64,000 nucleotides of DNA, taken from an uncultured bacterium (lineage in GTDB: Bacteria > Babelota > Babeliae > Babelales > Babelaceae). A model generated the notes under the pieces. That model saw only the letters and a program-made list of their open reading frames with translations, was not told the origin of the DNA and ran no database searches. Position numbers and translations under genes: made by a program. Below are positions 11,479 through 62,781 of the stretch, piece after piece. Each line of letters starts with the position of its first letter. Within the stretch, counting starts at the first letter, position 1. The stretch is taken from contig CAWKFG010000004.1 in the NCBI GenBank assembly GCA_963848965.1, positions 192,001 to 256,000 on the forward strand, in the 5' to 3' direction.

Positions 11479-12093
11479 TTATCTATCTGTTTTAGGCTCA
11501 GGAGCACAAACACAGCGAGAATCTTCTAACTCTTTTACCTCTTCCATAGTTTGAGGAACAAGATTGTCTTGTGTCTTCTTCACCCAACTGTCATAAAAAG
11601 ATTGTAGTTGCTTATAGAGCATTCCTATTCTTTCTAATTCTTGTGTATTTTGAGTTCGTAGGTCCACAGATGGCAATATAATCTTAGTAAAACACTCATC
11701 AACTTTGAATAATTGTAGAGTATCCAATATACCCCTTTGAAAAGCATTCCAACATTTAAATAGTGTTTGCCCATCAGCTAAATCATCTACAAAAGTATTA
11801 TAAAGTATACCTTCTGCATAAAATCGTAGACTCAGCTCTTTCTCCCATAGATCATGCCAAGCTCGTGAATCTTTAACCAATAGAGAAAGCTTAGCTAGTA
11901 CATCACAATAGTTAGTGCCAAAGCGTTGTCCTTTTTTGTAATATTCTTCTGCACTAAGAGGACAATCCTCTTTATAATTTTCTGCAACATACATGCGCAT
12001 CTTTTGCTTTTCTTTTTCCATACCATATGAGAAAGCAGGCACTAGTATAAGACTAAGAGCACATAATTTTTTTGCTAAATACATATTTTTCAT
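11479..12093 (-). CDS. Secreted hypothetical protein
   Basis: Signal peptide ending SYG|ME; no recognised domain. Confidence 0.7.
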   Translation of the reverse strand: MKNMYLAKKLCALSLILVPAFSYGMEKEKQKMRMYVAENYKEDCPLSAEEYYKKGQRFGTNYCDVLAKLSLLVKDSRAWHDLWEKELSLRFYAEGILYNTFVDDLADGQTLFKCWNAFQRGILDTLQLFKVDECFTKIILPSVDLRTQNTQELERIGMLYKQLQSFYDSWVKKTQDNLVPQTMEEVKELEDSRCVCAPEPKTDR

Positions 12094-12311
12094 ATTTTAC
12101 CTTTCAATCATTATGTTTTTTGTTAACATAACTTTTATCATACAGAAAATAATAGATTTATCAAAACCTCTCTATAGAAAATCATAGTACATTAAGCAAT
12201 TGTGCCTTAGTTAGCACGTTCATGAGAGCTGTTACATAATTTCTAGCTAAAGGTACAGTAATAGCAGAAAACAAGTATGGTTACTCTATTTTTTCTTTTA
12301 AGGAATCATCA

Positions 12312-12749
12312 ATGAACAAATTACAAAAGATTCTTATTATAGCTTTCTTCTTTTCAGTTAACACTCACGCAGTTTTACTTACCAACGGAGCTCACATCCC
12401 TTATGCAAAAGTAAAGCATGTCTATGATATTCTAAAAACATTAGAAAAAGAGAAGTGCTATTGTCTCTTAGCAGATTTATATAGAGCTTCAAAGAGCAAG
12501 CAGCTCAATCCGGATACTTTTGTACTCAATGATGTGCTAAACAAGAAAGATAGCAACAGAATGCAAACTGCAATAGAGCTTGGCCTCTGTGACAAAACAG
12601 GAGCTCTTGATACTGATACTGCTCATATTATTAACTCTTCTATTAGTACAATGTTCAAGGCACCACGCTGGGTTATATATGTGACAGTAAAATCACCTAT
12701 AAGTTGGAAAAACTATTTTTCTTTAAGTTATTGGAAAGAAAAAGCATAA
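12312..12749 (+). CDS. Secreted hypothetical protein
   Basis: RBS AAGGA; signal peptide ending THA. Confidence 0.7.
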   Translation: MNKLQKILIIAFFFSVNTHAVLLTNGAHIPYAKVKHVYDILKTLEKEKCYCLLADLYRASKSKQLNPDTFVLNDVLNKKDSNRMQTAIELGLCDKTGALDTDTAHIINSSISTMFKAPRWVIYVTVKSPISWKNYFSLSYWKEKA

Positions 12750-12874
12750 AAAAAGGATGGGAGATTAAGAATTCAAGGATGCCAAACTACGTCGATTCTT
12801 GTTATTCAATAGTATTTGCTGTATAATTAATTTAAAAATAAATAGAATTAACATTACTTTAAAAGGATTATCGT

Positions 12875-13285
12875 ATGTCAATCAAATACTATTTTATTGC
12901 CGTTTTTCTTCTTGGTACCTCATTAGCTCAAGCAATGGATGTTACACAACCGCAAGGTCAAAGTACTTTAACAGAAGCTCAAAAAGCACTTTTTATGTTC
13001 CGCGCTCGTGGCTTAATGTTTGTAAAAGCTGCTCAAGAAAATAAAACTGCCGTAGTTAATGCTCTTTTACCAACCATTGGTACCCTTATTAATACGAAGG
13101 ATCAAGCTGGCAAAAGTGCTCTTCATCATGCAGTAGGCAATCAAAATAGAGAAATGGTACAAGCTTTAGTAAGAGCTCAAGCTGATATTACTCTCGCAGA
13201 TAATGCAGGGCAAACACCTTTAGACCTTGCAAGAGAAACAAATAACACAGAAATTATAGCTCTTTTATCTCCAAAGCAAAAATAA
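12875..13285 (+). CDS. Secreted ankyrin-repeat protein
   Basis: Signal peptide AQA|MD; GKSALHHAV and GQTPLDLA repeats. Confidence 0.88.
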   Translation: MSIKYYFIAVFLLGTSLAQAMDVTQPQGQSTLTEAQKALFMFRARGLMFVKAAQENKTAVVNALLPTIGTLINTKDQAGKSALHHAVGNQNREMVQALVRAQADITLADNAGQTPLDLARETNNTEIIALLSPKQK

Positions 13286-13522
13286 GTAAGTTCATTACGA
13301 AAAAGAACTGAATATTTCTATTTCTTTGATCAACCAGTGAAAAAGTATCAAAAAAGAATTATCACCTTAATTCTCCTGTGCTATACTCAAAAGTAGCTTC
13401 AATAATGAAAAAATCATCAGATAAACTAACCTTTTACTACTTAATTATTGCGAATAAAGCTATTAATTTTGTATAGTAAGTAGAGTAAAATAATCAAATA
13501 ATTTATCTATAAGGAGAATAAA

Positions 13523-13873
13523 ATGAATTATAAGACTTTTTTAGGGATACTTCTTGTATTTCCTTTTACCACTTTTGGCATGGAGCCAGATCCAGCATCT
13601 GTTGATAGTCCTCTAAATGCAGCTGGAGAAACTCCCTTAATGCGAGCTATAACCTATGGAGATAAAGATAAAGTACAAAAGCTTATTAAAGCAGGTGCTA
13701 ATATTAATTTCGTAACTAAATATGGTATGACTCCTCATGCCCTTGCTACTATAGGCTCTATGTTTAGTCCCGAAGCACAAGCTATATTAAAGCTTCTTGA
13801 AGAACATGGGGCACACGGAGGCCCTATGCCCCTTAAAATAACAGTCGGATCAAAAACAAAAGAATCAAAATAA
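13523..13873 (+). CDS. Small secreted ankyrin-repeat protein (paralog of 17887..18207)
   Basis: Signal peptide TFG|ME; GETPLMRAI...LIKAGANIN. Confidence 0.88.
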   Translation: MNYKTFLGILLVFPFTTFGMEPDPASVDSPLNAAGETPLMRAITYGDKDKVQKLIKAGANINFVTKYGMTPHALATIGSMFSPEAQAILKLLEEHGAHGGPMPLKITVGSKTKESK

Positions 13874-13894
13874 TGATTTGCTTGAATTAGATTT

Positions 13895-13925
13895 AAGATG
13901 GCCAAAAAACTTTGGCCATCTTTTT
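13895..13925 (+). terminator. Intrinsic terminator
   Basis: AAGATGGCCAAA/TTTGGCCATCTT hairpin followed by T tract. Confidence 0.75.
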
Positions 13926-13998
13926 ATTCCCGCACAAGCCTCTCGTGCATATACTCTTGCAAAGCTCGTAGCTCAGCATACTATGCCCTTTATTCAAC

Positions 13999-15180
13999 TT
14001 ATACGTTGGTTAATTCTTCTTTTAGATCCTGCGGAAGTACTTTCTCTGCTTTTGTACTAAAAGTCTGATTATTTTTGCGTATATAGGCTAGAGTAATTTC
14101 CTTAAGTGTTGCCACTTGTATCTTCTTTTTATCTTTAAGTCTGGTCAGCCATAAATACTTAGGCTCTGGACCACCTCTGGTATCAACGGGTTCTCCTTTA
14201 CCTAATACCTCGAGCCATTTTCCTCCTTGGCTAATAGCCTTAAGAGCAACTAAGGGAAGATTTGTCGATATGCTCAAGAGCTTAGCCTGATCACCATCAT
14301 CAATTGAATCATCATTTACCATGAGATTAAGAATTGAACGTATATAGGGAGTATTTTCAATACAAAGTTTGCTTAGTTGAGGTGCCATAACCGCTTTTTC
14401 TGGCACTTTTACAAGTGGGTTATTATCTAGATCTACATATTGTAATGTAGGATATTCCGAAGGCATACTGTCAGAAATATCAGTAAGCCGATTATTACTA
14501 AGCGTAAGTGAGGTAAGTCTTGTATTATACTTTAAAGCATCAGCAGAAAGTCCTTTGAGATAGTTATCACTCACGTCTAATATCTCTAATAGAGGACAAT
14601 AATAAAAAATAGTCGCAGGAAGCTCTTGAAGGTAATTATGATTCAATCGAAGAGATTTAAGTTTTTTACACAATACAAAAAGATTTCCAGAAAGCTTTGT
14701 AAGCATATTACTTGAAATCCATAAGTATTCTAATATGCTCTTGTCTGAAAAAGTATCTTCAGCAAGTAAATTTATCTTATTAGAACCAAGATCAAGGCCA
14801 GATAATCGTGAGAAACATTCCAAATCTTTCTTTTTTAAAGATGTAAGAGCATTTTCTGAGAGCCTTACGGAATCAATAGTGCTTACATTAGAATGAGAAG
14901 CTGATATAAATTCTTTTAAATGCTCAAGCGAGGCTATATTTAAACCCTGAAGATAAAGACTTTTCTTATCATAACTGAAAAGTTGACCATTACTGAGTCT
15001 ATGTGCAAATTCCACCTTCGTTCTTAACTTCAAAAGATCAAGGACCCCAACAGTTGCTTTTTCTTTTTTAGAATGTACAATCTGCTGGCCATGCCGAGCC
15101 GATTCCTTCTTTTCTTGCTCCATACCCTGCATATACATAAAAAGACTTATACTTGCTAAAGTTAAAAATAGTTTTTTCAT
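13999..15180 (-). CDS. Secreted leucine-rich-repeat protein with C-terminal BC/Cul-box-like module
   Basis: Probable start ATG 15180 (MKKLFLTLASISLFMYMQG|ME); about eight LxxLxLxxNxL repeats; tail TLKEITLAYI...LPQDLKEEL. Confidence 0.88.
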   Translation of the reverse strand: MKKLFLTLASISLFMYMQGMEQEKKESARHGQQIVHSKKEKATVGVLDLLKLRTKVEFAHRLSNGQLFSYDKKSLYLQGLNIASLEHLKEFISASHSNVSTIDSVRLSENALTSLKKKDLECFSRLSGLDLGSNKINLLAEDTFSDKSILEYLWISSNMLTKLSGNLFVLCKKLKSLRLNHNYLQELPATIFYYCPLLEILDVSDNYLKGLSADALKYNTRLTSLTLSNNRLTDISDSMPSEYPTLQYVDLDNNPLVKVPEKAVMAPQLSKLCIENTPYIRSILNLMVNDDSIDDGDQAKLLSISTNLPLVALKAISQGGKWLEVLGKGEPVDTRGGPEPKYLWLTRLKDKKKIQVATLKEITLAYIRKNNQTFSTKAEKVLPQDLKEELTNV

Positions 15181-15196
15181 AGTGAGCCCATTCAAT

Positions 15197-15225
15197 AAAA
15201 AAGCGGTACTAGAAAGTACCGCTTT
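15197..15225 (-). terminator. Intrinsic terminator
   Basis: AAAGCGGTACT/AGTACCGCTTT hairpin with U tract on the minus strand after 15233..15976. Confidence 0.7.
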
Positions 15226-15232
15226 AAATGTG

Positions 15233-15976
15233 TTAGAGACAAAACGCAAATGCGTATGACGGTTGCTTAAATCTCTTATATTCTGCTTCTTTTTCAAGAG
15301 CATTGTGCTGCACTAAAAATTCTTTTGCAAAATCATTTTTCATGTTGCGTGCCTCATTATAAGCAAAATAAAGGTAGAGATCTCGCGGTGTACATTCAGG
15401 CCGATCTTCTGAAGCAATACCAGGTGATGAACTTGCTACCTCTTCTAACTCAAGTGACAATGCGGTATGTTTAAAAAGCTCAACGATTTTTAAATGCTTT
15501 TTCAACTGAATACGCGTATCATCTCTATCCTGTACCAACTCTAATTCTTCAACTTTAGAAGAAATGAGGGTTCGGATAAGTTCCATAACAGCTCTTTTTT
15601 CAGAAAGTTTTAAATTATTATTTTTAAAAAGAACAAGAAAAGCCAATTCAACAAGATCTTTTACAGGATGACTGTAAATTATGCTGTGAGTTAGATCAAG
15701 GTTAAGATAAGTCACTAGTCGCTTATTAACTTCTTGTTGCAGCTCTTGTGGCAAGAGTGAAAGGAAAGTCGCTTTATACATAGCATCTTGTGGTAGTTGT
15801 TTTAAGCGTTTAAGCGCGTTATTATATACTTCTTCAGAATTTACCGGATTACTTCGCTTTACCGGTGGAAGCAGGGACCTCTTAGGTTGCTCCTCATGAT
15901 TCATTGCACGTATAGTTGAGATGCTCAATAATAGCACGCTTACGAGTGCCGTTACTTTATATGATGTCATATACAA
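15233..15976 (-). CDS. Secreted hypothetical protein with F-box-like segment
   Basis: Signal peptide IRA|MN; FLSLLPQELQQEV. Confidence 0.7.
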   Translation of the reverse strand: MYMTSYKVTALVSVLLLSISTIRAMNHEEQPKRSLLPPVKRSNPVNSEEVYNNALKRLKQLPQDAMYKATFLSLLPQELQQEVNKRLVTYLNLDLTHSIIYSHPVKDLVELAFLVLFKNNNLKLSEKRAVMELIRTLISSKVEELELVQDRDDTRIQLKKHLKIVELFKHTALSLELEEVASSSPGIASEDRPECTPRDLYLYFAYNEARNMKNDFAKEFLVQHNALEKEAEYKRFKQPSYAFAFCL

Positions 15977-16082
15977 ATCCTTTAATCAAGGCAATTATTA
16001 ATAATATTCATTACAATAGAATTTCTATAATTCTATTGGTAAATTATAATAAAAAATTATAAATAAAGCAAATAAAACTATA

Positions 16083-16190
16083 ATATGCTTATCCTAATTG
16101 ACAAGTTGCGTGACTTTTGCTCATCCGACAAGCTCCACACAAAAGCAAGGATCTGCGATAGGAAGCCTGTTTCCAGTCAATAAGATCATG
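16083..16190 (-). pseudogene. Decayed N-terminal remnant of an AAA+/DUF4143 ATPase
   Basis: Manual translation HDLIDWKQASYRRSLLLCGACRMSKSHATCQLG* aligns with LLEWKNSTLRMPLLIRGARQVGKTHAARNLG of 19976..20284. Confidence 0.75.
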
Positions 16191-16226
16191 AAAATAGCTA
16201 GGTGGGTACTCCTAAAAGATCTTTCT

Positions 16227-17021
16227 TCAGTAATTACGGTAAGGCTGTGCCTCATTCCATGCTTTGCTTAACGTATCTCTAAATAGTTGATCAAGTTCAT
16301 TTACATCTGGTTGATTTTTAAAATGTAACTCTTTTACATAGTTATTAAAATACTCAATCTGCCTTTCAGCATAGTCATTAATAATAGAAATCCGAGGAGC
16401 TTTATCTAATTCCTCTCCATTAATTTTTCTTTCAAGCAACTGCAGAATAGCCTGCTTGAGTTCTCCTCTTTCAAGCAAAGTATTCATCATAAGTTGAAAA
16501 TCTAGAGGAGCCATTTCATGAAAATTTTCAATCCATGCGCAAGCTAACAAAGGACGAAGAACATAAAAATATTTTTTTACCCATACGATATCTCCTTGTA
16601 AATATTCTTTGTAGTTATTAAGAGCCATGCTCAAATAATGGTACAAGCATGATTGAGGATTAAAATAGTTACGAGCTAGTCGTCTCGCTTGTTCAGCAAA
16701 GTCAGTATACTCTACATATACAATAGGGCTATTAAGCCACTCCATCATCGATGGATTAGACTTGCTAAATAGCCTTAAGGCTTTTCTTATCTCCCATCCA
16801 GCTAAATCAATATCGTTTGATAAAATTTTTTCAAAATTATCCTTCTTATCCCCTATTGAAAGATACCACTCAAAATGATGCACATAAATAAATCGGACAT
16901 CCCAATCGCTATTAGTAGATGCAAATCCCCAGGCTCTACTACCTGACTCTACAGCATATAAGATTTTTATTGATCTTTGTTCTTCTAACGCTTTCAATTC
17001 TTTTATTATTGCTTCTTTCAT
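16227..17021 (-). CDS. Predicted nucleotidyltransferase (YcgL/RlaP-like, Pol-beta fold)
   Basis: ESGSRAWGFAS..SDWDVRFIY, SNPSMMEWL, KKYFYVLRPLLA motifs. Confidence 0.88.
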   Translation of the reverse strand: MKEAIIKELKALEEQRSIKILYAVESGSRAWGFASTNSDWDVRFIYVHHFEWYLSIGDKKDNFEKILSNDIDLAGWEIRKALRLFSKSNPSMMEWLNSPIVYVEYTDFAEQARRLARNYFNPQSCLYHYLSMALNNYKEYLQGDIVWVKKYFYVLRPLLACAWIENFHEMAPLDFQLMMNTLLERGELKQAILQLLERKINGEELDKAPRISIINDYAERQIEYFNNYVKELHFKNQPDVNELDQLFRDTLSKAWNEAQPYRNY

Positions 17022-17057
17022 TGGAACTCCATAAGCGCAAAAACTGCTTTTCCATAC

Positions 17058-17589
17058 TCAGACTATTTTCTCTACAGTTTGATTTTTAACAACAGCAGCA
17101 ATAGCATATAAAGGATATGAGTAGATCCTATCTCTAGCTGAGTATACATAGTTATTTCTCGAAAAGTGTATTCCGTAAGGGATTTTAGGATGCTCTTTTA
17201 GAAAGAGATGCATACTTTTTAGAGCACCTCCAGTACCGCTTTTAACTTCTATAGGAATAACATGCTCATTATGTTGTATAAGATAATCAATCTCTGCTTG
17301 ACTTCCACGTTCAGCACGCTGCCAATAATATAGCTCTGCTTTCATATGAGGATCTGCGTACACTAAGAGCTCTTGACCAACAAACGCTTCAATAAATTCG
17401 CCTTTGTTAACAAATTGATCAAAAGGATTTACTAACCATTGGCCTAACCGAAGTCCCAATTGTGCCTGAGTTAAAGCAACGTCAAGGCAAAATACCTTAA
17501 ATACTTCAGGATCAACTTGAGCTCCTAAAGGATCTACGATAGGAAGCTTGTTTCCATTCAAGAAGATAATGATCAATAAAACGGCGCAT
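17058..17589 (-). pseudogene. AAA+/DUF4143 ATPase with large internal deletion
   Basis: ATG 17589 gives MRRFIDHYLLEWKQASYRRS, then joins out of frame to the C-terminal third (PLGAQ...LYYWQR...AEIDYL...PIEVKSG); Walker A and B absent. Confidence 0.85.
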
Positions 17590-17633
17590 GGTCAAAATTC
17601 AAAGATAGTTTAGCCTAAATATGGTCAAAATTC
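17590..17633 (-). promoter_or_regulatory. Repeated TTTTGACC boxes, 33-bp period, abutting the start codon
   Basis: GGTCAAAA at 17590 and 17623. Confidence 0.6.
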
Positions 17634-17886: not shown

Positions 17887-18207
17887 ATGGCCTGCAAAGT
17901 TTTTTATGCACTACTTATTGTATTACCTTTTACAATTTTCGGTATGGAACCAGCAGCTGTTGATCGTCCCTTAGATAAAGCGGGAAATACTCTTTTAATA
18001 AAAGCTATAGCTAGTGGTAACATAGACGAAGTAGAACGACTTATAAAACTTGGTGCCAATGTTAATCTGCGTACCGCATATGGTATAACCCCTTTCAGCC
18101 TTGCCTTTATGCTAGCCACAGTTGATCCGGATAAAGGAGAACCTATAGTAGATACACTCAGAAAATATGGCGCAACAGCTGCTAGAACCTCCAAAATAAG
18201 AGATTAA
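17887..18207 (+). CDS. Small secreted ankyrin-repeat protein (paralog of 13523..13873)
   Basis: RBS AAGGAG before ATG 17887; IFG|ME; GNTLLIKAI...LIKLGANVN. Confidence 0.88.
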   Translation: MACKVFYALLIVLPFTIFGMEPAAVDRPLDKAGNTLLIKAIASGNIDEVERLIKLGANVNLRTAYGITPFSLAFMLATVDPDKGEPIVDTLRKYGATAARTSKIRD

Positions 18208-18296
18208 GCCTGGCTTGATTAGTATGATAGTTATAGCTGCTACACTCAATGATAGTCAAATTAAATACACAATAAAATAATTATTAAGGAGAGAAA

Positions 18297-18548: not shown

Positions 18549-18627
18549 TGATGCCAATTATCTAAACCATTATAGTAGCTGATACGTATTTTCTTGTAAA
18601 ATTCACCGTGATTTTATAAAATTATAG

Positions 18628-22173: not shown

Positions 22174-22494
22174 ATGTATCTAGTACCCATTTTATTATCA
22201 ATTTTCTTTTCTTTATCACTCTACGGTATAGAAAGAGAAGAGGCTGATCAAGTACAGCAAGTTAAACAAAAACCGCTAATACCATCATTGAATGATCTTA
22301 TATGGAGGCTTCATATTATGCGGCAACTACTAGGAATACCTATGACACTAGAAGAAATCGTAGAGCAACTACCTCGAGTAAGGATGTCAAAACTTTACTT
22401 TAAGATCTTAGATTTTTTAGAAGATCACGAGCTACGCGTAGGAATTCCATCCACAAAGAAGGAAATAGATAAAATGGCTCCTGAAAAGGGATAA
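22174..22494 (+). CDS. Secreted hypothetical protein (may extend to 22658 across frameshifts)
   Basis: Signal peptide LYG|IE; IPSLNDLI BC-box-like segment; open coding-like frames continue to TAA 22658. Confidence 0.6.
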   Translation: MYLVPILLSIFFSLSLYGIEREEADQVQQVKQKPLIPSLNDLIWRLHIMRQLLGIPMTLEEIVEQLPRVRMSKLYFKILDFLEDHELRVGIPSTKKEIDKMAPEKG

Positions 22495-32783: not shown

Positions 32784-34208
32784 TCATCTGCCCGTCGCAA
32801 AAAGTTTCTTACCGGCTTTGCAAGGCATATTATAAAGTTGTGTATATATTCGTGAAAAGATGTTACCTTTACTAAAGATATCTCTTCTATACAAATCGGA
32901 GAACTTCTTTTTCTGTTCATTGCTATACGGTACTTCCTGTTGTGCAGACTCTTGTTTATGCAGCATATCTGTTGTAGGTAAGTTTCTAATAGCAAGTATA
33001 AGACGTTTATCCTCGGCTGTATTTTTTTCCAGATCTATATTAAGGTCAAGATCATCATTAGCTATATATCGTTGTACAACTCGAGCACGAACGTTCCATA
33101 ATTCACTAAGAACACCTTGCTTTAAGATGCTGTGATCTGGATCACATCCGTTTAACTGCGTTCTTATGTTAACAATTCGCTTAACGTGAGCTTGTTGCAT
33201 CTCATCATCAGTCATAGATATCTTACGTTGAGGATCAAACATATGAACAATTCCCCATGTGTAATCACCTGGATGTGCTCCTGCTGCTAAATCCTGCATT
33301 TCTTGCTCTAATGGTAACGTTACCTTATTACCGCCAAAAAGACCTTTAAAGCCTCGTCCAAATGCTGAGAACTTATCTCCTACATATGAAGCAGCTTTCT
33401 TAGCAATAATGCCAATGCTTCTGTGTGCATTACAACCACCGCCAAGCTGAATAATATCTCCAGTGGAGTAAAAGTTAAGAAGAAGATCTATATTCATTGG
33501 TCTACATTCTTTAAAATCATGCCCTTCCTGAATTATAGGAGCACCTATATGTACTGCAAGTGCAATAGAATTAAAGAGCGAATGGCTTGCATGATTCACC
33601 ACGTTACCACCATGGCTATGAGCTATAGTAACAACTCTAAAATTAGAGAAGTAGGTATTAATTAAGTCCGCTAATACCTGTCCTGCAGATCGCCGTGCCG
33701 AATCCTCTTCAGCACCAGTCCAACCAAATGTTAGCATATGTACAGAAGTGTTTTGATAATATGCTGCTTGTTCTGCAAACTTCTTAGTCTTAGGAAGCAA
33801 GTTCATTCGATTTTCTTCATTCTCATCCATATACTCTGGGCTATGTGCTCGCGCATTAGTTCCATGAATAAGAAATACCACTATTGGAGCTGCGTGAGGA
33901 TCACGGTTAACAGGATTATATACCTTATAATGGAATACTCCTGCTCCTACAGACTCACTTATTTGTCTCCACCTAAACTTGTCTGCAATTATATTTGGTG
34001 AAACATCATTCCATCCAGTAGTATTAGGAATTTGGATCTGCTGTGGCTGTGCAATGCCATCTACATCAAGCCAGCTGTCTGCTAATGCGTCTTTTCCATA
34101 CCACGAACTGGCAGGATCAACGCCTGAAAAATGTCGTACCCCATCTGCGTGGACTAATCCACTCATAGATACGAGTGCTATAAGCGCTATAGCTATTTTA
34201 TATACCAT
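32784..34208 (-). CDS. Secreted alpha/beta-hydrolase (lipase-like), paralog of 30272..31414
   Basis: Signal peptide; IHGT, TIAHSHGGNVVN, NFYSTGDIIQ, DPDH. Confidence 0.82.
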   Translation of the reverse strand: MVYKIAIALIALVSMSGLVHADGVRHFSGVDPASSWYGKDALADSWLDVDGIAQPQQIQIPNTTGWNDVSPNIIADKFRWRQISESVGAGVFHYKVYNPVNRDPHAAPIVVFLIHGTNARAHSPEYMDENEENRMNLLPKTKKFAEQAAYYQNTSVHMLTFGWTGAEEDSARRSAGQVLADLINTYFSNFRVVTIAHSHGGNVVNHASHSLFNSIALAVHIGAPIIQEGHDFKECRPMNIDLLLNFYSTGDIIQLGGGCNAHRSIGIIAKKAASYVGDKFSAFGRGFKGLFGGNKVTLPLEQEMQDLAAGAHPGDYTWGIVHMFDPQRKISMTDDEMQQAHVKRIVNIRTQLNGCDPDHSILKQGVLSELWNVRARVVQRYIANDDLDLNIDLEKNTAEDKRLILAIRNLPTTDMLHKQESAQQEVPYSNEQKKKFSDLYRRDIFSKGNIFSRIYTQLYNMPCKAGKKLFATGR

Positions 34209-45377: not shown

Positions 45378-46001
45378 ATGCAAAAAATAGCACTTATCTT
45401 AGGAATGTTTAGCTTTTTTTCACTCATTGCAGATACTTCATCACTCTCTCCTCACATGGATCTTATATATGCAGTAAGACAATTAGATTATAGTAAAGTC
45501 TCGCAGCTCTTAGAAAAAGAAAAAGCGCTTCCTGCAGAACTTCAAAACGGACTTATTCGTGAAATTGATACTCTTATAGAAAAGGAAAAAAAGTCACATT
45601 GGAGTAAAGGATTTGCTAATCTCATAGTCGGTATTCCTCTTTCTATTATCTCTTTACGATTTCTCAACAAAGCATACGAGCACAATGTTGATAGAGAAGA
45701 TTCTCTAAAAGAGCTTGCACGCAGATTTATCAAAGTACAGCCTACAAAAGTCGCAGTTGCTCGTGAAGGCACAGGAGTATATGTTACTAATCTGCCATTA
45801 GTTGCTGTTGCTGGATTTTTGAGTGCAGTTGGCGCTCAAGCGGTACTTAAGGGTATAACATCTTTTTTCTCTGGTGAAAGCAAAAATTACTTTAAAGCGT
45901 TAGCTATGAAAAGTCTTATAGAAAACAAAGTCGTTTTTAGCAAGAAAAAGCTGTCTGTACAGTGGGATCCAAGTATCTTTGAAACTGATATACAATCATA
46001 A
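45378..46001 (+). CDS. Secreted/membrane hypothetical protein with two internal hydrophobic segments
   Basis: Signal peptide, two TM-like stretches. Confidence 0.65.
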   Translation: MQKIALILGMFSFFSLIADTSSLSPHMDLIYAVRQLDYSKVSQLLEKEKALPAELQNGLIREIDTLIEKEKKSHWSKGFANLIVGIPLSIISLRFLNKAYEHNVDREDSLKELARRFIKVQPTKVAVAREGTGVYVTNLPLVAVAGFLSAVGAQAVLKGITSFFSGESKNYFKALAMKSLIENKVVFSKKKLSVQWDPSIFETDIQS

Positions 46002-46012: not shown

Positions 46013-46038
46013 AAAAGAGGACCTTAAGGTCCTCTTTT
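46013..46038. terminator. Bidirectional intrinsic terminator
   Basis: AAAAGAGGACC/GGTCCTCTTTT hairpin. Confidence 0.78.
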
Positions 46039-47357
46039 TACATAATAGTTGGCAAGGTAAATTTAAAGGGAGCTTTTTTTGGATACAGTATAGAAACTAT
46101 CTCACGAATACTTAATCTATCAACAATAGAATAGAGATCCCATATTGATATAACACCATTATTAGCAGTGCTCAACATATACCGTCCATCTGGGCTAAAG
46201 CATAACGAAGAAATACCATCGTAATGAACATTATAATCTTTAAGTTCAATCAAATCATTCTTTATCTTCCTTGCTATAAACACAGTATTGTGTAAAGAAC
46301 TTGCCGCTATATAGTTATTTTGTGGATGAAGTGCAATACAGGAAACAGGTGGCCAAATTATACCGTAACCGCAATAAGATACAGCTCCATACTCATTATC
46401 TTTGGTAGCATAGACCTTTATCGCCCCGTTTTTATAACCTACTATAGCTTCTCTACCTCCCGGGGTAAAGTTCACAGCAGTGATAGCTCTTTGACTGCTC
46501 TTTGCAAGCAAATGAGTAGCTACAAAATTCCCTCTCCAATTTATAAGTACTCCTGCATACTGATGGTAAAGTTCGTTACGGCCACTATCATATCCTACAA
46601 GCAGTTGTTTACTTTGAGTGTGAAATACTGCGCAAGTGAGGTAAATATTCCTATGTTGCGGAAAAAATCCTAGCAAATTACTTGTATTTGTACATTGCCA
46701 GGTAGTGGGTGACCATGTGCGCATAGTAAAATCTTTAGAAAAAGAAAAAAATCGAGTAATTCCTGATGAGTTATATTCAAATGCCACAGCTATAACAGAT
46801 TGTGTATGTCCTCGTAAAACTGCAAGACATTTATTTTCGCTTATATCCCACACAGCAATAGTTGCGTCCTTAGAACCTGTAAGAGCATATTTACCATCTC
46901 TGCTAATAGTCAAACAGGTAATTGGTCCTTTGTGTGCTTGCAATGTTTGCGCTTGCATAGTACTTTTGTTAAGGACATATACATTACCATCCTCCGCTCC
47001 TAAAACAATAAAATGTCCATTGGGCGTAAATGACGAACAAGTAAAGGTAGTTACATAAGTAAGGCCCGGTAGAGTAACTTGCGCTAAAGTTGGCATATGT
47101 GATGAGCCTTTAAAAAGAGCGTGATAATAGTTCTTAAAAAAATAGTTACGAAGGTTGTTTTGCACACCTGCATCCAAAGCCTCTAAACTTTTTAACAACA
47201 ATTCTTGTTTCTTAAACGATGCTTGTTTCAATAATGTATCAATGGTAGAGCATGACGACTGTACTAAAGACTTTACATGCGACTGTGGGTCCATTGCTTT
47301 AAGACCAAAGAGAGGCATGAACACTAATAGGGTTATAAAAATATTTTTAAACATCAT
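46038..47357 (-). CDS. Secreted WD40-repeat protein
   Basis: Signal peptide LKA|MD; AHKGPIT...TGSKDATIAVWD, GHTQSV, FSPDG...SIWD repeats. Confidence 0.9.
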   Translation of the reverse strand: MMFKNIFITLLVFMPLFGLKAMDPQSHVKSLVQSSCSTIDTLLKQASFKKQELLLKSLEALDAGVQNNLRNYFFKNYYHALFKGSSHMPTLAQVTLPGLTYVTTFTCSSFTPNGHFIVLGAEDGNVYVLNKSTMQAQTLQAHKGPITCLTISRDGKYALTGSKDATIAVWDISENKCLAVLRGHTQSVIAVAFEYNSSGITRFFSFSKDFTMRTWSPTTWQCTNTSNLLGFFPQHRNIYLTCAVFHTQSKQLLVGYDSGRNELYHQYAGVLINWRGNFVATHLLAKSSQRAITAVNFTPGGREAIVGYKNGAIKVYATKDNEYGAVSYCGYGIIWPPVSCIALHPQNNYIAASSLHNTVFIARKIKNDLIELKDYNVHYDGISSLCFSPDGRYMLSTANNGVISIWDLYSIVDRLSIREIVSILYPKKAPFKFTLPTIM

Positions 47358-56751: not shown

Positions 56752-57839
56752 CGCTCCAGTAAGACAACGTTTTCTTTTTGCCAATAAAGATATACTTGAT
56801 TATCATAGTCAATAATTTCTTGCGGAAAATGCTCTTCATTCTGCTGAAAGACTTGTAACAACTCATTGTTGTTAAGCCGTATATTGTATTGAGTAGATCT
56901 TCCGTGGTAAATAATACCTTCAACAATTCCTTCAAGCATATTAGAAAAGCCGGACACTTTCTTTTTTGTGATATAAATCTTTTCTGGCCGCACACTCATA
57001 AGCACTGCATGACCTTCCTGCATCCACGACTTTATCTTAGGAATATAGATAGCAAAAGCACCTAACTGCGGAATATCAATAAGATTATCTTGAGGAGTAA
57101 ACCGCAAAGTACCATGTAAAATATTAGTACTGCCTACGAATTTTGCAACAAACGACGATACAGGAAACTCATAAATTTCCTTAGGAGTTCCAATCTGCTC
57201 AACTTCTCCATTATGGTTCATAATTGCCATCTGATCTGCAACTGTTAATGCTTCTAGCTGATCATGCGTAACATAAATGAATGTCGTTTGAAGCTTTTCT
57301 TGAAGTTCGATAAGTTCAACAAGCATGCGCTCTCGCAGCTTAAAATCAAGTGCAGCTAATGGTTCATCTAAAAGCAGCACTTCCGGTTCATTTACTACTG
57401 CACGTGCAAGTGCTACTCGTTGTTGCTGTCCTCCTGAGAGTTGGCTAATAGCTTTGTAGACATGTGCTTCCAAATGCACTGTCTTTAAGACTTTCATAAC
57501 CTTCTCTTTAATAACATCTTGTGACAGCTTACGTATACGTAAACTATAAGCTACATTATCAAAAACGTTCAGATGAGGAAACAGTGCATAATTTTGAAAT
57601 ACAGTATTAATGCGACGCTGATTAATAGGAAGATGCGTAATATCTTGGTTACCTAAAAAGATTTTTCCGCTGTTTACTTCTTCAAAGCCGCCAATTAAAC
57701 GTAAAAGCGTAGTCTTCCCGCATCCGCTTGGACCAAGCAAAGCAAAAAACTTTCCTGACGGAATATCAAGACTAATATTTTCCAAAATAGGTTCACCATT
57801 ATAAGACTTGGTTACGTTATCTATTTTAATGCTTCTCAT
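56748..57839 (-). CDS. potA: Spermidine/putrescine ABC transporter ATPase
   Basis: GPSGCGKTT, VFQNYALFPH, LSGGQQQR, LLDEP, VTHD. Confidence 0.94.
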   Translation of the reverse strand: MRSIKIDNVTKSYNGEPILENISLDIPSGKFFALLGPSGCGKTTLLRLIGGFEEVNSGKIFLGNQDITHLPINQRRINTVFQNYALFPHLNVFDNVAYSLRIRKLSQDVIKEKVMKVLKTVHLEAHVYKAISQLSGGQQQRVALARAVVNEPEVLLLDEPLAALDFKLRERMLVELIELQEKLQTTFIYVTHDQLEALTVADQMAIMNHNGEVEQIGTPKEIYEFPVSSFVAKFVGSTNILHGTLRFTPQDNLIDIPQLGAFAIYIPKIKSWMQEGHAVLMSVRPEKIYITKKKVSGFSNMLEGIVEGIIYHGRSTQYNIRLNNNELLQVFQQNEEHFPQEIIDYDNQVYLYWQKENVVLLER

Positions 57840-58536
57840 TTCTATTGGCACCTGCAAAATACATAGGAACTATGACATCTGAAAATGTACAAGGAATCAC
57901 AATTGCTACTACTAAAAAAAGAAATACATAACCCATCTGCGGATACCACTTATCAAATCCGTGAGCAACCATATAAAATAGTGCAGCTAACGAGCTAATA
58001 AGAATATGAATAAAATGGGATCCCAATGAAAATACACGTAACATAGAAGAATGATGGTACCTCAACACCAGACCATTTAAAATACCAACACCAAGAAAAG
58101 GAAGGACATTCTGCAATTCTCTATGAAAGCAGATATGCAACTCCATTTCTATACCTAAAGCTCTTCCTGAAAGATACGGTAATATCACGTCTGAAAGCAT
58201 ACAAAAAACTGCTGGTGAAATAGTGCCTACAATAAGAGCTTTGCCAATACTATGAGAAAAGCGCGAAAAGGTGATAATTGTTCCTGTTGCTGCAAAAAGT
58301 ATATGCAAAAAGTGAAAGCTATGAAAAAGCATATGATAGCCAGAACATCGTGCTTCACGGGCAGCAAGACCAAATGATTGTACGGTAGCCGAATAATCTA
58401 ATAAGCTCAATATGACCATACCCAACGCTACTGAAAATATTGCATAGGGAAGATGATGTAAAAGTTCTGCCTTAAGTGAATAATCGTGATGATGATGATC
58501 ATTATGAATGTGTGATGTATGCGTAGTATTATGCAT
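57826..58536 (-). CDS. His-rich membrane protein with internal repeat (putative metal transporter)
   Basis: Probable start ATG 58536; His-rich N-terminus; two HxxH...CxxSD repeats in TM segments. Confidence 0.7.
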   Translation of the reverse strand: MHNTTHTSHIHNDHHHHDYSLKAELLHHLPYAIFSVALGMVILSLLDYSATVQSFGLAAREARCSGYHMLFHSFHFLHILFAATGTIITFSRFSHSIGKALIVGTISPAVFCMLSDVILPYLSGRALGIEMELHICFHRELQNVLPFLGVGILNGLVLRYHHSSMLRVFSLGSHFIHILISSLAALFYMVAHGFDKWYPQMGYVFLFLVVAIVIPCTFSDVIVPMYFAGANRNEKH

Positions 58537-58779
58537 GATTCTCGAAGTAAAGATACGTGAATAATATTTTGTTCTCTTTATTGAATATACGCTTTTTCTA
58601 TAAGAAAGCAAAAAGCCTACTTTGTTTAGGGTACTTTTTATAGTACCTCTTTTTTTTATAAAAAGCCAGCTACTATCATGATTTTCGGCGTTGCCAAAAA
58701 AATAAAAGTACATAGACTTAGATAAAAATGAATCACGTCTGTGATAACCCTTTACGCGAAATAGCATGAAAGGATGTAT

Positions 58780-59589
58780 ATGCGTATACTTTTTACTCTT
58801 ACCTTCCTTCTTTTTACCTCTAGCGGATTCGCTCATGAACCATTGGGAGACAACTCTGATCTTGATACAGATATATCAGAAGACATAACACGTGGTCCTA
58901 GAGAACACGCAGAAGGAATCTCACTTATTGGAGCCAATCTTTCCCCTCAAAACGAAAAGTTTGTAAAAGACCTTATGAAAGAGCTTGATGTAGATTATGG
59001 CCTCACTCTTTTACAACCGTCCGCTTACTTAAAAGAAATAAGTCCTCAATTTGCTTATGAAGCTGTTTTTCTAGCTGAATACTATACGCTCTTTATTAAC
59101 GAAGAATGGCTTAACAAACTCTCTGAACAAGAAAAGCGCTTTCTTATTGGAAAAAATCTTTTAAAAATTAAAAATCAATTACCGTACTTTAAACGAGCAA
59201 AAAAGCACTTTCTAAGAACAGCAGGCTTTCGTATAGGAGAATTTGTTTCTACACTTATACTCTATAAGTACCTTGGAAGAACAGAAACATTCAAAGGATC
59301 TGGTTGGTGGAAGAGATTACAAAGGCTCAGTATTGCCCTTATTCCTACGTTCTTATTTGAAGTACTTATCCAGCGCCCTCTTGCTAAAAAAACTGAAGAG
59401 CAAATGCTTTTTGATGATGCAAAATATGCTGTAGAGACGCTCAACTGTCATGACGGAGCTCTACAACTGTATAACCGTCTTAAGGAAGAACTTGCGCCAC
59501 AGGCACAAACTTCCTATTGGTACTATTACTATAAAGGCTTAGAAAAACTGATACCGTATATTGAATCTTTAAAAGCTCAAAAAGCTTAA
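58780..59589 (+). CDS. Secreted M48-peptidase-like protein lacking HExxH
   Basis: FINEEWLNKLSEQEKRFLIG followed by KNLLK where HExxH is expected; two TM segments follow. Confidence 0.55.
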   Translation: MRILFTLTFLLFTSSGFAHEPLGDNSDLDTDISEDITRGPREHAEGISLIGANLSPQNEKFVKDLMKELDVDYGLTLLQPSAYLKEISPQFAYEAVFLAEYYTLFINEEWLNKLSEQEKRFLIGKNLLKIKNQLPYFKRAKKHFLRTAGFRIGEFVSTLILYKYLGRTETFKGSGWWKRLQRLSIALIPTFLFEVLIQRPLAKKTEEQMLFDDAKYAVETLNCHDGALQLYNRLKEELAPQAQTSYWYYYYKGLEKLIPYIESLKAQKA

Positions 59590-59594
59590 CATAA

Positions 59595-59616
59595 AAGGGC
59601 ATCATACGATGCCCTT
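59595..59616. terminator. Bidirectional intrinsic terminator
   Basis: AAGGGCATC/GATGCCCTT hairpin. Confidence 0.7.
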
Positions 59617-59650
59617 ATTATTTTTCTTCAAGCTCCATAAGGCAGTTGAC

Positions 59651-60622
59651 TCAAGTTCCTTTGGCAAAGACTTCTTGGAGAGTAGCTTGAGCAAGGGCCA
59701 AAGCCGCTTGTGTAGATGGACTATCTGCAAGTGGATTTAACATAACAAAATCATGAATAGCTCCTAAGCAGCGCATAGCTCTTACCTGTACTCCTGCTTG
59801 CATCAGTTTATGAGCATATGCTTCAACTTCATCCCGTAATACATCGTTCTCTGCGCTAATAATAAGAGCAGGAGGAAGTCCTTTTAAGTGCTCAAGAGAG
59901 GCACTTAAAGGAGATAGTATATAGGCACTACGAGCTGCCTTGCTAGGCTCATAAGCATTCCAAAACCATTCCATTGCAGCTTTTGTTAACCATGGTCCTT
60001 GAGCAAACTCTTCGTACGAACGTGTATTGAAGCTCGCATCGGTTACTGGATAAAAAAGAACCTGGTACATAATAGAAGGACCTTTGCGCTCTTTAGCAAG
60101 TAATGTAACTGCTATTGCCATATTACCACCAACACTATCGCCAACCACAACCAACCGAGATGTATCAAGATTAAACTCTCGGCCATGCTGTGCAATATAT
60201 TCAGTTGCTGCATACGCCTCTTCTACTGCGACAGGATAATGAGCCTCTGGTGAAGGCGTATATTTAACAAAGACTACAGCCGACTGAGTACTGGAAGCAA
60301 TTCTACGAATAAGGTGGTCATGCGTATGCTCATTACCTAATATCCAGCCTCCTCCATGAAAAAACATAATAACAGGCAGAACATCGTTGCTCGAACGAAC
60401 AATACGAAGACCAATAGTTCCTTTTGGACCTGCTGGAATAGAGATATCTTCAATATGTACAGGTATCTCTTTAACCGGCTCTTTTTGCACAGTATTAAGA
60501 ACTTCACGAGCTTCTGCAATAGAAAGCGTATAAAGAGGAGGTCCTCCCTGTGCTTCTAACTTTTTAACAAACTGTGCAGTTGTAGGATCGAGTCTCTGTA
60601 TTACATCCTTATGTTCCATCAT
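59651..60622 (-). CDS. Alpha/beta hydrolase, HSL-like esterase
   Basis: HGGGW, GDSVGG, ENDVLRDE, IHDF. Confidence 0.93.
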   Translation of the reverse strand: MMEHKDVIQRLDPTTAQFVKKLEAQGGPPLYTLSIAEAREVLNTVQKEPVKEIPVHIEDISIPAGPKGTIGLRIVRSSNDVLPVIMFFHGGGWILGNEHTHDHLIRRIASSTQSAVVFVKYTPSPEAHYPVAVEEAYAATEYIAQHGREFNLDTSRLVVVGDSVGGNMAIAVTLLAKERKGPSIMYQVLFYPVTDASFNTRSYEEFAQGPWLTKAAMEWFWNAYEPSKAARSAYILSPLSASLEHLKGLPPALIISAENDVLRDEVEAYAHKLMQAGVQVRAMRCLGAIHDFVMLNPLADSPSTQAALALAQATLQEVFAKGT

Positions 60623-60834
60623 AACTCCAATAAGCGTATATCGACATGCTTTGTTTTATGATGAAAAAAGAAGATGCAAAATGTCAAGAAAACAAGCCCT
60701 CATTCTTACTCAATGCACTAGAGTAGTTCACAATGCTTTTTTATCTCTTGAGCTTAAGCTGTTGAGAAAAATGTAAATAAAGGTACCTTAATAAAGAGTT
60801 CAATTGAATCTTTGTAAATTAAGGCAGACTACCT

Positions 60835-62148
60835 ATGAATAGTATTAAGAAAATGTTACTTATTTTAGTAACTTTAGCATGTGCAGTTCCGCTAGGAGCA
60901 TTACCTATACGCAGCTTAAAAAATGTAGGCAATAGTTGTTTTATAAATGCCACAATTCAATGTCTTTCCCACATTGATAGCATGGCACTCTCTATACTTT
61001 TTGAAAAAGATGATTACTACAAGAAAAAATCGCTTGCAGCTCGTTATCGAAAACTTCTTAAGGAATTAAATAGTGAACAAGCGAGTGATAATAAAGTAAA
61101 GAAGCAGCTCAAAAAATTCTGTTCACAAAGTTGGGAAACTCTCGGTGTAAGAAAATATAGCCAACAGGATGCTGCAGAGCTTATTGATACTCTTTTTAAT
61201 CATATAACTGACTACGATATACAAGATACAGTTAAAGATACGTTGCCTTTCTACCCAGGCACTTATCAACCACAAACAATGCTGTCGAATCTCTTTTTCT
61301 CATGCGTTCATTCAATTCTTACGCCATTAGGACTCTTTGCACTTCCTTCTGTAAAAACAGAGCCTGTTAGTATGTTAACTATCCCATTTACACCTAAAGC
61401 TCTTACGTTAGAAGACTGCTTATCTGCTTATTTTATGCCAACAAAGCTTACAGGAAACGAAAAAATAACATACTTACCAGGCATTCGTGTAGATGCTCTG
61501 AAACGGCTTGCACTTAAGCATACTTCAGAATATCTTATTATACGACTTAATAGAAATAAGTTTACTGTTGAACATGATAGAAAGAACAACAAAGTATTTG
61601 TATCTACTAAGCTTTCTGAACCTGTAAGTTTTCCACTTACTCATCTTGATGTATCGCCATATTTTGATCTTGGATGTAAGCAAGAAGGCTATAAATATAA
61701 TCTTATATCATTTATTGTTCATGTTGGAAGCAGTGCATCATCAGGGCACTACACTGCTTATGTAAAAAATGAGGATGGATGGCATTATTGCGATGATAGA
61801 TCTATCATTAAAATAACAAATAAACAAATAGAGGACATTGCAAAGCGCGGATACGCCATTGACCCTCTACATTTGTTATTTCCAGAAAGTCAGCCACAAG
61901 AGAATATCAAAACAAGTAAACGACAAACGCCTGTTCTGTTTTTCTATGAAAAAGAGCCACGAGCGACTGATGAGTCAAAAGTTCCAGAGATAGCTTCACA
62001 TGAAGAAGTACTCAAGATAGCAAAAGATAAAGAGAACTCTCCCTCTATCATCCAAGAGACAGAGAAAAAAGTCTCAACAGAAATTCAGAGAAATACTCGT
62101 GATGTAGATTTGTTCACTTCTGATGAAGACTGTATAATACTCAATTAA
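60835..62148 (+). CDS. Secreted ubiquitin-specific protease (USP/peptidase C19)
   Basis: Cys box LKNVGNSCFINATIQCL, QQDAAE, LxRxxF, His box HVGSSASSGHYTAYVK...WHYCDD; signal peptide. Confidence 0.92.
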   Translation: MNSIKKMLLILVTLACAVPLGALPIRSLKNVGNSCFINATIQCLSHIDSMALSILFEKDDYYKKKSLAARYRKLLKELNSEQASDNKVKKQLKKFCSQSWETLGVRKYSQQDAAELIDTLFNHITDYDIQDTVKDTLPFYPGTYQPQTMLSNLFFSCVHSILTPLGLFALPSVKTEPVSMLTIPFTPKALTLEDCLSAYFMPTKLTGNEKITYLPGIRVDALKRLALKHTSEYLIIRLNRNKFTVEHDRKNNKVFVSTKLSEPVSFPLTHLDVSPYFDLGCKQEGYKYNLISFIVHVGSSASSGHYTAYVKNEDGWHYCDDRSIIKITNKQIEDIAKRGYAIDPLHLLFPESQPQENIKTSKRQTPVLFFYEKEPRATDESKVPEIASHEEVLKIAKDKENSPSIIQETEKKVSTEIQRNTRDVDLFTSDEDCIILN

Positions 62149-62169
62149 GATTCGTAATTCTTATATACA

Positions 62170-62199
62170 AAAAAGGTGTAGCATAAGCTACACCTTTTT
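62170..62199. terminator. Bidirectional intrinsic terminator
   Basis: AAAAAGGTGTAGC/GCTACACCTTTTT hairpin. Confidence 0.8.
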
Positions 62200-62217
62200 A
62201 CTCAAACAAAAACTCTT

Positions 62218-62781
62218 TTAAGCAGCGAGAGCTTGTTTTGCTTTTTCTGCTTGTACTTGCTTTGCTTTTGCTGCTTGCACTTCTTTTAATGGTTTTACTA
62301 TTAAATAATAGAAAAGAGCACCAAAACTTCCTGTTGCAGCTAACCCATAAAAGAGAGAGCTTGGTTTAGCAGGAAGTTTTTGTGAAAACTGCTGATTTTT
62401 TGCTTCTTGCACATTACTTGTAGCAGGTGCAGCTTTGGCGTCTACAGGAGCAGTACCTTGCGGAGCTGCATTTTCAGAAGTTCCTGAATTGGAGACTGGT
62501 GGTACAGCTTCAGGCATTTGCACAGTCTTAGTATCTGAAGTATCTGTTTTTATCTCCACAGTTACTGGTGGAACCGGCTTTTCAACTGGTACCTGAGGCT
62601 CCTGATTTACTGTGATAATCACCTCTGGTTGTGTACTTGGCTTAACCGGAGGCTTACTATGTAAAGTAGCTGTGTTACCACGAGGAGAAAGAGAAAGCGC
62701 TTCAGTAGTAGGTGAAGCAACATCTGCCATACCATAGCAATATGCTGAACTTACAAGAACAATAAATAATTTCTTCATCAT
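62218..62781 (-). CDS. Secreted Pro/Thr/Ala-rich protein with C-terminal membrane anchor
   Basis: Signal peptide CYG|MA, low-complexity stalk, TM segment, Lys/Ala-rich tail. Confidence 0.7.
   Translation of the reverse strand: MMKKLFIVLVSSAYCYGMADVASPTTEALSLSPRGNTATLHSKPPVKPSTQPEVIITVNQEPQVPVEKPVPPVTVEIKTDTSDTKTVQMPEAVPPVSNSGTSENAAPQGTAPVDAKAAPATSNVQEAKNQQFSQKLPAKPSSLFYGLAATGSFGALFYYLIVKPLKEVQAAKAKQVQAEKAKQALAA

Follow-up and report, generated by a model that had tools for sequence, protein, structure and literature searches.

Introduction

In several lipoprotein codes, such as the Lol +2 rule and the Bacteroidetes lipoprotein export signal, the residues past the cleaved leader decide the compartment in which an exported protein ends up. 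The Plasmodium export element (PEXEL) has the consensus RxLxE/Q/D. Met is rare as the first residue after the cut (+1) in textbook sets of signal peptides. In Bacteroidetes, the accessible text of two reports describes a Q-rule, by which signal peptidase I substrates carry Gln at P1′ that is cyclised to pyroglutamate (PMC5837995, PMC10653852). For TcpF, the available portion of the report presents the disordered mature N-terminus as a machinery-specific export signal that is bound by a minor pilin (PMC10120004), and in the available part of the paper on Babela, a cultured relative of the organism studied here, the type II system (T2SS) is the only secretion system found (PMC4378268). Here, we analyzed a 64,000-base window (C4:192001-256000) from the five-contig, 1,726,235-base genome of an uncultured Babelaceae bacterium (designated G000), in which several secreted proteins carry signal peptides whose predicted cleavage exposes Met, and the analysis was extended to the whole genome and to its relatives.

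The window is AT-rich (GC 0.33-0.385), and the genome is small (1.73 Mb) and parasite-like, with abundant signal peptides and ankyrin proteins. More than one-tenth of its proteins carry an export signal that exposes a predicted +1 Met, mostly followed by Glu, and nearly all of these proteins are of effector types. No published description of such a Met-first rule was found in the full-text literature on Dependentiae/Babela and signal peptides, and the word 'methionine' occurs 0 times in the accessible main text, supplements excluded, of the Chromulinavorax (PMC6561590) and Babela (PMC4378268) papers.

Methionine Is Enriched at the Predicted Cut Site Genome-Wide

A codon-usage model gave a set of 1513 genes with 87% coding density, in which leaders and cleavage sites were predicted not by SignalP but by our own heuristics, which combine the n- and h-regions with the −3/−1 rule under several definitions. 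Depending on the definition, 169 to 264 genes have the Met junction. In the 169-member set, Met is the residue directly before the first charged residue past the hydrophobic core, with −1 and −3 unconstrained; the strict Met class comprises 188 proteins, and the lenient, inclusive class 264 of 1513. Members were counted by the junction itself, and a scoring-matrix cleavage predictor, which often picked an upstream site, was set aside.

Met was found directly before the first charged residue in 169 of 744 hydrophobic N-termini (ME 131, MK 26), while it makes up 1.9% of 69,535 comparable interior positions (binomial P = 1.3e-124). When the junction was searched as small residue-X-polar residue, X was Met in 181 proteins, Leu in 72, and Phe and Ile in 40 each. 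As a control of the pipeline, 200 kb of the AT-rich relative G008 yielded 0 Met junctions among 93 hydrophobic N-termini.

The leaders of the Met class are of the ordinary Sec/signal peptidase I kind and are carried by effector-type proteins (ankyrin, LRR, WD40, C2H2, RING, UCH, and many orphans). They have the n-region, h-region and −3/−1 box of such leaders, and the genome encodes the cognate peptidase, while the bond that is cut is a predicted one. Their median length is 20 amino acids, with a mean of 1.36 K/R in the first 8 residues, in a class that was itself built on charge and hydrophobicity criteria. The −1 residue of the 169 set is mainly small (A60, G49, S37, C9, T9), and −3 is L, S, I, V, T, A or C. 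A preliminary description of the window, in which the exposed Met was first pointed out, had considered that the cleavage sites might fall elsewhere; however, A, G, S or C occupies −1 in 155 of the 169 junctions (91.7%), compared with 33.6% of 575 non-Met controls, that is, the predicted box stands in exact register with Met. The consensus reads S-S-L-Y-[A/G/S]↓M-E-[K/P/Q/R]-[E/A/D/P], where the arrow marks the predicted cut.

The residue after Met is strongly biased as well. In the strict class (n = 188), +2 is E in 106, Q in 31, K in 22, and D and N in 4 each; in a set with +2 unconstrained (n = 173), residues that permit Met removal (S 4, T 2) and bulky hydrophobics (Y 4, F 3) are rare. Further downstream, 31% of residues +2 to +31 are charged in the Met class vs. 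24% in non-Met proteins. About 26 junctions read Met-Lys-Arg and continue with acidic and basic runs resembling nuclear localization signals, e.g., in the large ankyrin genes of G000:C1 and C4; basic residues directly past the cut reportedly interfere with export by Sec in Escherichia coli.

Selection Acts on the Residue, Not on a Start Codon

Met is kept by selection as the amino acid at the predicted mature N-terminus (P1′), and it is neither a second start codon, nor an unselected leftover, nor the mark of a dedicated second signal peptidase. That the residue itself is selected follows from the exact register of the cleavage box together with the Shine-Dalgarno (SD) and codon tests described below.

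Were the junction ATG a second start, each gene would yield an exported and a cytoplasmic form, and indeed the codon is always ATG and in frame. However, the SD 4-mers AGGA, GGAG and GAGG lie upstream of 2 of the 188 junction ATGs (1.1%), fewer than at 1146 random internal ATGs (7.6%), although this organism does use SD sequences, as found at 98 of the 188 true starts (52%). Furthermore, GTG or TTG makes up ~15% of true starts (27/186, 29/188), but never occurs at the junction Met position, and junctions with Leu or Val are near background in these codons (TTG 8/51, background 9%; GTG 0/13, background 12%). The register of the cleavage box also speaks against a second start, and it is hard to see what the ankyrin, RING and C2H2 effectors would do in the bacterial cytoplasm, so dual initiation appears quite improbable. 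A nucleotide-level signal at +2 was ruled out: Glu codons there are used at GAA:GAG 71:29, close to 67:33 genome-wide, and therefore selection acts on the residue rather than on the bases.

Alternatively, the genes could have been captured, or have once been cytoplasmic, and have gained their leader by upstream extension or grafting; Met would then be their former start codon and persist without selection. AT-rich upstream DNA would readily encode Lys-rich and hydrophobic leaders, the effector families are patchy between genomes, and such an origin may account for some of the junctions. As the reason why Met persists, however, it is highly improbable, because Met is kept in 69 of 79 ankyrin proteins while their leaders have diverged past detectable DNA similarity, Glu follows the junction Met in 56% of cases vs. 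6.4% at position 2 of non-exported proteins (where Lys makes up 16%), the cut site is in exact register, and homologues in the relative G048 have leaders without Met. The suggestion in the preliminary description that captured genes had signal peptides grafted on at the start codon is disfavored on these grounds, and on those of the missing GTG/TTG codons and of a missing common cassette. Specifically, BLASTP groups the mature parts of the 188 strict members into 79 clusters, of which 70 are singletons and seven are small, while the two largest have 86 members (mostly ankyrin) and 11 members. Similarity in the DNA of the 5′ untranslated region and leader was limited to 42 of 17,578 pairs, 13 of these across clusters, which rules out a mobile or shared 5′ leader cassette.

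The Junction Separates Effector-Type From Envelope Proteins

Ankyrin proteins were found by regular expression (n = 79), and their leaders and junctions were judged by eye: 69 have a leader with a small residue before Met (small↓M), and the others comprise 3 with a hydrophobic N-terminus that lacks this junction and 7 that are leaderless. Pfam families were then assigned to the strict class, with the 59 largest members scanned at E ≤ 1e-6 and, of the other 129, 97 at E ≤ 1e-8, leaving out 32 matches to the ankyrin expression. A family was found in 86 of the 156 scanned proteins, 50 of them ankyrin. Among the 59 largest, 53 have a family: 40 ankyrin, 3 WD40, 2 zf-C2H2, 3 AAA, and one each of MutS_V, PLA2_B, FGase, Metallophos and FtsK, the last a multi-pass membrane protein and thus a false positive of the strict class. 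The 33 assigned among the other 97 include 10 ankyrin, 5 LRR, 3 WD40 and 7 zf-C2H2, with one each of TPR, RING, UCH, Mito_carr, ADP-ribosylglycohydrolase, DUF6829, DSPc and DnaJ; PP2C also occurs in the class. None of the 86 Met-class proteins with a Pfam match belongs to an envelope-biogenesis family.

Strict leaders without a nearby Met were found on 106 proteins, 36 of them with a Pfam family. These include envelope proteins, namely BamA, Trypsin_2 (HtrA-like), S49 (SppA), S41+PDZ (Ctp) and Amidase_3 (AmiC), and a range of enzymes and other proteins (two ALO, RPE65, a nucleoside hydrolase, GH1, two alpha/beta hydrolases, PEBP, VWA, Metallophos, two DSPc, and two Rce1-like). The three secretins of the genome are non-Met as well. 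At the predicted cut, resident proteins with non-Met leaders present Gln, Glu, Lys, Asp and Leu. Six further non-Met calls (MurA, GlmU, an amino-acid kinase, an acyltransferase, and two DUF4143) are taken to be false positives of the heuristic; five of them have no secretory function, and the acyltransferase is less certain. Eukaryote-like proteins with a non-Met leader also exist: 3 WD40, 4 ankyrin (one of which really reads P↓ME), IBR, 2 DnaJ and MutS_V. Overall, the junction separates effector-type from envelope proteins, and the enrichment of +1 Met in effector-like over housekeeping proteins, which the preliminary description had put forward as a check, is strong: 69 of 79 ankyrin proteins have it, while BamA, the HtrA-like protease, Ctp, SppA, the amidase and the three secretins do not.

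Three adjoining dual-specificity-phosphatase paralogues at L024:15846-18386 have homologous leaders, one reading VVA↓MEMAY and the others VIA↓KQTT and VIA↓KKTT, and therefore Met can be gained or lost between close paralogues. Two other sets of Met-class proteins were noted. Locus L013 (G000:C1:230167-249950) contains, at ~2934-10625, a tandem array of seven genes for eukaryote-type C2H2 zinc-finger proteins with Met-class signal peptides, which are candidate host-nucleus effectors, and a mitochondrial-carrier-family (Mito_carr) protein with a Met-class signal peptide is encoded at L018:2796-3677(-).

Met Junctions in the Window

The preliminary description had listed eight genes of the window with Met right after the predicted cleavage site, and this was borne out in all eight (Table 1): each encodes a Sec leader that begins with Lys-rich sequence, continues as a hydrophobic core free of charges and ends in a small −1 residue, and whose −3/−1 box abuts an in-frame ATG. 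That the eight are unrelated holds for five of them (at E < 0.01), but not for the proteins starting at 12875, 13523 and 17887, which are ankyrin paralogues (BLASTP E 2e-5 to 8e-21), and therefore the eight genes represent six families. The true start of 13523..13873 is preceded by AAGGAG, and the frame of 13999..15180 is open up to 15303, with the signal peptide beginning at the MKK at 15180.

Table 1. Genes of the window with a Met junction, and one variant; the arrow marks the predicted cut and coordinates are those of the window.
Position	Strand	Product	Signal peptide	Junction	+1 codon
11479..12093	-	204-aa protein, no Pfam family	24 aa	FSYG↓MEKEK	ATG 12019-12021
12875..13285	+	136-aa ankyrin-repeat protein	20 aa	AQA↓MD	ATG 12935-12937
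13523..13873	+	116-aa ankyrin-repeat protein, paralogue of 17887	19 aa	TFG↓ME	ATG 13580-13582
13999..15180	-	393-aa leucine-rich-repeat protein	19 aa	MQG↓ME	ATG 15121-15123
15233..15976	-	247-aa protein, no Pfam family, TTG start	24 aa	IRA↓MN	ATG 15902-15904
17887..18207	+	106-aa ankyrin-repeat protein	19 aa	IFG↓ME	ATG 17944-17946
22174..22494	+	106-aa protein, junction variant with +1 Ile		SLSLYG↓IEREE	ATA 22228-22230
46038..47357	-	439-aa WD40 beta-propeller protein	21 aa	LKA↓MD	ATG 47292-47294
62218..62781	-	187-aa Pro/Ala-rich protein, no Pfam family	17 aa	CYG↓MA	ATG 62728-62730

The variant with +1 Ile looks like a Met-class junction that has mutated to, or tolerates, Ile, its ATA codon being 1 base off ATG. 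Leaders with ordinary +1 residues occur elsewhere in the window, such as VFS↓QF on the GH1 enzyme (9143-10642), VHA↓DG (32784-34208), LIA↓DT (45378-46001) and THA↓VL (12312-12749). An ankyrin-repeat protein without a signal peptide is encoded at 10698-11195 (-), adjoining the Met-class cluster at 11.5-18.2 kb.

The Rule Varies Among Relatives

For comparison, 60 genomes of the same order were sampled across 12 families, of which f4, f6 to f9, f11 and f12 were covered by no more than a few kb. Met junctions per 200 kb number 20 in this genome, 14 in G001 and 13 in G005, Met being the top residue in all three, and 3 in G048 and 0 in G008; in G041, 100 kb contained 2, contributed by a single pair of paralogues. 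The +2 residue differs between genomes too, with D in 8 and E in 1 junctions of G005, and E in 6 and D in 5 of G001; among the sampled loci, small↓ME was seen in family f2 and small↓MD in f3. In G048, 9 of 13 ankyrin open reading frames have small↓M, the +2 residue being V, I, A, E or K, and five of these are close paralogues. A tandem array of five ankyrin paralogues with the junction SLHG↓M[V/I/A]AELTEE, in which an aliphatic residue follows Met, lies at L158 (G048:C2:1000001-1020000).

Individual families were also followed across genomes. Among 30 genomes, the BamA protein, which is non-Met here, clearly has small↓M in 4 and ambiguously in 2, and PLA2_B homologues have it in 0 of 12 readable relatives. 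Homologues of the ADP-ribosylglycohydrolase and UCH proteins were found only in G048, which has two non-Met cases and an ambiguous P↓MN. Three Met-class proteins, PLA2_B, ADP-ribosylglycohydrolase and one UCH, thus have G048 homologues that lack the Met, and DUF6829 had no homologue in the 5 genomes searched. These results show that the rule is lineage-variable and strongest in this genome, and that the +2 preference shifts between lineages.

Export and Modification Machinery

Signal peptidase I is encoded by a single Peptidase_S26 gene (G000:C1:323737-324447), therefore the same enzyme must cut both Met and non-Met leaders. A dedicated second signal peptidase was accordingly ruled out for this genome, and the copy number of the gene in G001, G005, G008 and G048 (1 to 3) does not track the rule.

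The single enzyme could be taken to suggest that the motif serves cleavage itself, with Met at P1′, Tyr/Phe at P2 and Leu at P3 tuning the release rate of abundant effectors and no later reader being involved. Consistent with this, the motif S-S-L-Y-[AGS]↓M-E spans the cut site, and the lineage-specific +2 could follow drift in the S2′ pocket of the enzyme. Nevertheless, that same enzyme must cut BamA, HtrA and others with quite different P1′/P2′ residues, there is no reason why effectors alone should need tuning, and we know of no signal peptidase I that prefers Met at P1′, which together make an effect on cleavage kinetics improbable.

A T2SS operon at L072:14583-19349 encodes T2SSF, T2SSG, three further N_methyl pseudopilins, and a large protein at the GspK position. 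In addition, three secretin-domain genes lie close together at G000:C4:764493-774996, with open frames of 1153, 818 and 796 amino acids, the two shorter of which have a near-identical N-domain stretch in common; the several secretins might serve separate export routes. Complex prediction of the three largest pseudopilin-like proteins of the operon with the mature effector of 13523-13873 gave a score of 0.00 in two runs without controls, and carries no weight either way.

Among enzymes that could modify an exposed N-terminus, neither of the two Peptidase_M24 genes has a leader that would make it an exported Met aminopeptidase. Glutaminyl cyclase of the PF05096 type was not found in this 88.7% complete genome, mammalian-like and other cyclase types lying outside the search. 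Leader-like N-termini without Met occur in 4 of 6 GNAT genes, L084:14109-14801(+), L089:8916-9518(+), L078:17814-18347(-) and L066:154-978(+), one of which is an Acetyltransf_3 (RimJ/RimL/SpeG-like), all below the NCBIfam cut-offs. It is conceivable, although we give the idea scarcely any credence, that one of these leader-bearing enzymes, among them the RimJ/RimL-type member, acetylates Met-Glu outside the bacterial cytoplasm and so gives effectors a forged NatB-type Ac-Met-Glu end. Such effectors could not be told apart from the host's own proteins, and signal peptidase together with an exported acetyltransferase would form a bacterial pathway of N-terminal mimicry.

Possible Readers of the Exposed N-Terminus

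With the residue itself under selection, something may recognize it after cleavage. We tentatively favor, as possible rather than probable, that the exposed Met-Glu/Gln N-terminus is a post-Sec sorting tag read by the T2SS. Cleavage by signal peptidase I would expose Met-Glu/Gln and a short charged stretch in the periplasm; proteins so tagged would be handed to the T2SS and released to the host, while envelope-resident proteins, being untagged, would stay. The reader would be a bacterial component that co-evolves with the tag, e.g., the pseudopilus tip, GspC or a secretin. A lineage-specific +2 residue is proposed to arise because the reader co-evolves with the tag, and such a reader, rather than a general host rule, would account for the convergence of dozens of unrelated families on Glu in this genome and on Asp in G005.

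Several observations weigh against this sorting tag. The cleavage sites are heuristic predictions, and a tag of two to four residues carries little information. To our knowledge, no linear signal has been established for classical T2SS substrates. G008 and G041, relatives whose lifestyle is T2SS-bearing, show little or no Met enrichment, and in this genome the eukaryote-like proteins with non-Met leaders (3 WD40, IBR, 2 DnaJ, 2 DSPc) and the differing paralogues of the DSPc trio depart from the expected partition. The c-region of Met-class leaders also differs from that of non-Met leaders, with Tyr at −2 in 31% vs. 10% and Ser at −4 in 28% vs. 7%; non-Met cut sites having been picked by the scoring matrix, only the −2, −4 and −5 comparisons are unbiased. 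This difference counts against the tag because a signal that is read only after cleavage needs no upstream motif. Finally, the partition between effector and housekeeping proteins is predicted equally well by a function of the N-terminus inside the host.

In this alternative, the effectors would reach the cytosol or nucleus of the host, in which the stability of a protein depends on its first residue. A Met that stays in place because the next residue prevents its removal would there mimic a primary translation product of the host. Met would avoid the destabilizing Glu, Gln, Asp, Lys and Leu N-termini that ordinary cuts leave, and might be acetylated as NatB substrates are. The N-degron and NatB rules on which this builds are established, and several findings agree with it: Met is confined to proteins with eukaryote-type domains and is exactly N-terminal at the predicted cut, +2 residues that permit Met removal or are bulky and hydrophobic are scarce, and the leaders of resident proteins do expose Gln, Glu, Lys, Asp and Leu. 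However, Ala, Ser, Thr, Gly and Val at +1 would be stabilizing too, yet they are unused, and N-terminal acetylation is mainly co-translational. A general host rule also does not predict a shift of +2 between lineages, with NatB accepting both acidic residues, whereas E:D is 106:4 here and ~1:8 in G005. Moreover, the ankyrin paralogues of G048 begin with Met-Ile, Met-Val or Met-Ala, of which Met-Ile would be a Met-hydrophobic degron. We regard a host-directed role of the N-terminus as a close rival, only slightly less likely than the sorting tag. The reading of the motif as a NatB substrate in the preliminary description fits loosely: Glu, Asp, Asn or Gln does occupy +2 in 145 of the 188 strict and 178 of the 264 inclusive members, but Glu far outnumbers Asp here, and Asp dominates in G005. 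The two functions it had offered, a sorting signal for a second export step and a host-like N-terminus, both survive, and the evidence does not separate them.

Should the sorting tag be real, it would represent the first case of a simple linear code by which secreted effectors are told apart from periplasmic residents in a Sec/type II pathway, and the effector repertoires of an uncultured group of protist parasites would become readable from sequence, amounting here to 169 to 264 proteins, many of them without a known domain. Should the N-terminus instead work in the host, it would be a bacterial answer to eukaryotic N-terminal quality control. Under any reading, an in-frame ATG past the leader invites gene finders to start late, and the export signal is then lost from the annotation.

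Comparison With Known Systems

The Met-class leaders resemble classical Sec/signal peptidase I leaders in their n-, h- and c-regions, the −3/−1 rule, the median of 20 amino acids and the single signal peptidase I gene, and differ from them in the +1 Met and in a c-region unusually rich in Ser, Leu and Tyr. The N-termini on which lipoprotein codes act carry a lipidated Cys and are produced by signal peptidase II, unlike the +1 Met here; the junctions have no lipobox Cys, although −3 Leu (35%) with −1 A/G/S looks superficially lipobox-like.

As far as the accessible text of its descriptions goes, the Bacteroidetes Q-rule is likewise a lineage-specific, genome-wide rule on the residue that a signal peptidase I cut leaves in first place (PMC5837995, PMC10653852). 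In contrast to the Q-rule, however, the residue here is Met rather than Gln, it marks effector-type proteins only rather than most exported proteins, and no PF05096 cyclase was found; even among the 106 non-Met leaders, Gln accounts for ~8% at the predicted +1.

The PEXEL of Plasmodium, in the available portions of the reports, is similar in that a cut exposes a new N-terminus needed for effector export to the host cell (10.1101/2023.07.12.548774, PMC3567231). The second residue of its new N-terminus is Glu, Gln or Asp, the same set as at +2 here and in the relatives. This likeness is an analogy only, since PEXEL belongs to a eukaryotic parasite and involves an aspartic protease of the endoplasmic reticulum, the PTEX translocon and a variable first residue.

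TcpF, as presented in the accessible part of its report, is a single substrate with a longer, Tyr-dependent signal, while here hundreds of putative substrates have Met-Glu at the predicted mature start (PMC10120004). The type of machine that a TcpF-like export signal requires is present in this genome, in the form of the T2SS operon and the three secretins. In both cases, and in CofJ as in TcpF, an N-terminal segment of a mature, Sec-exported protein is, or here would be, read in the periplasm, and the machinery specificity of the TcpF/CofJ signal matches the lineage-specific +2 residue of the Met junctions.

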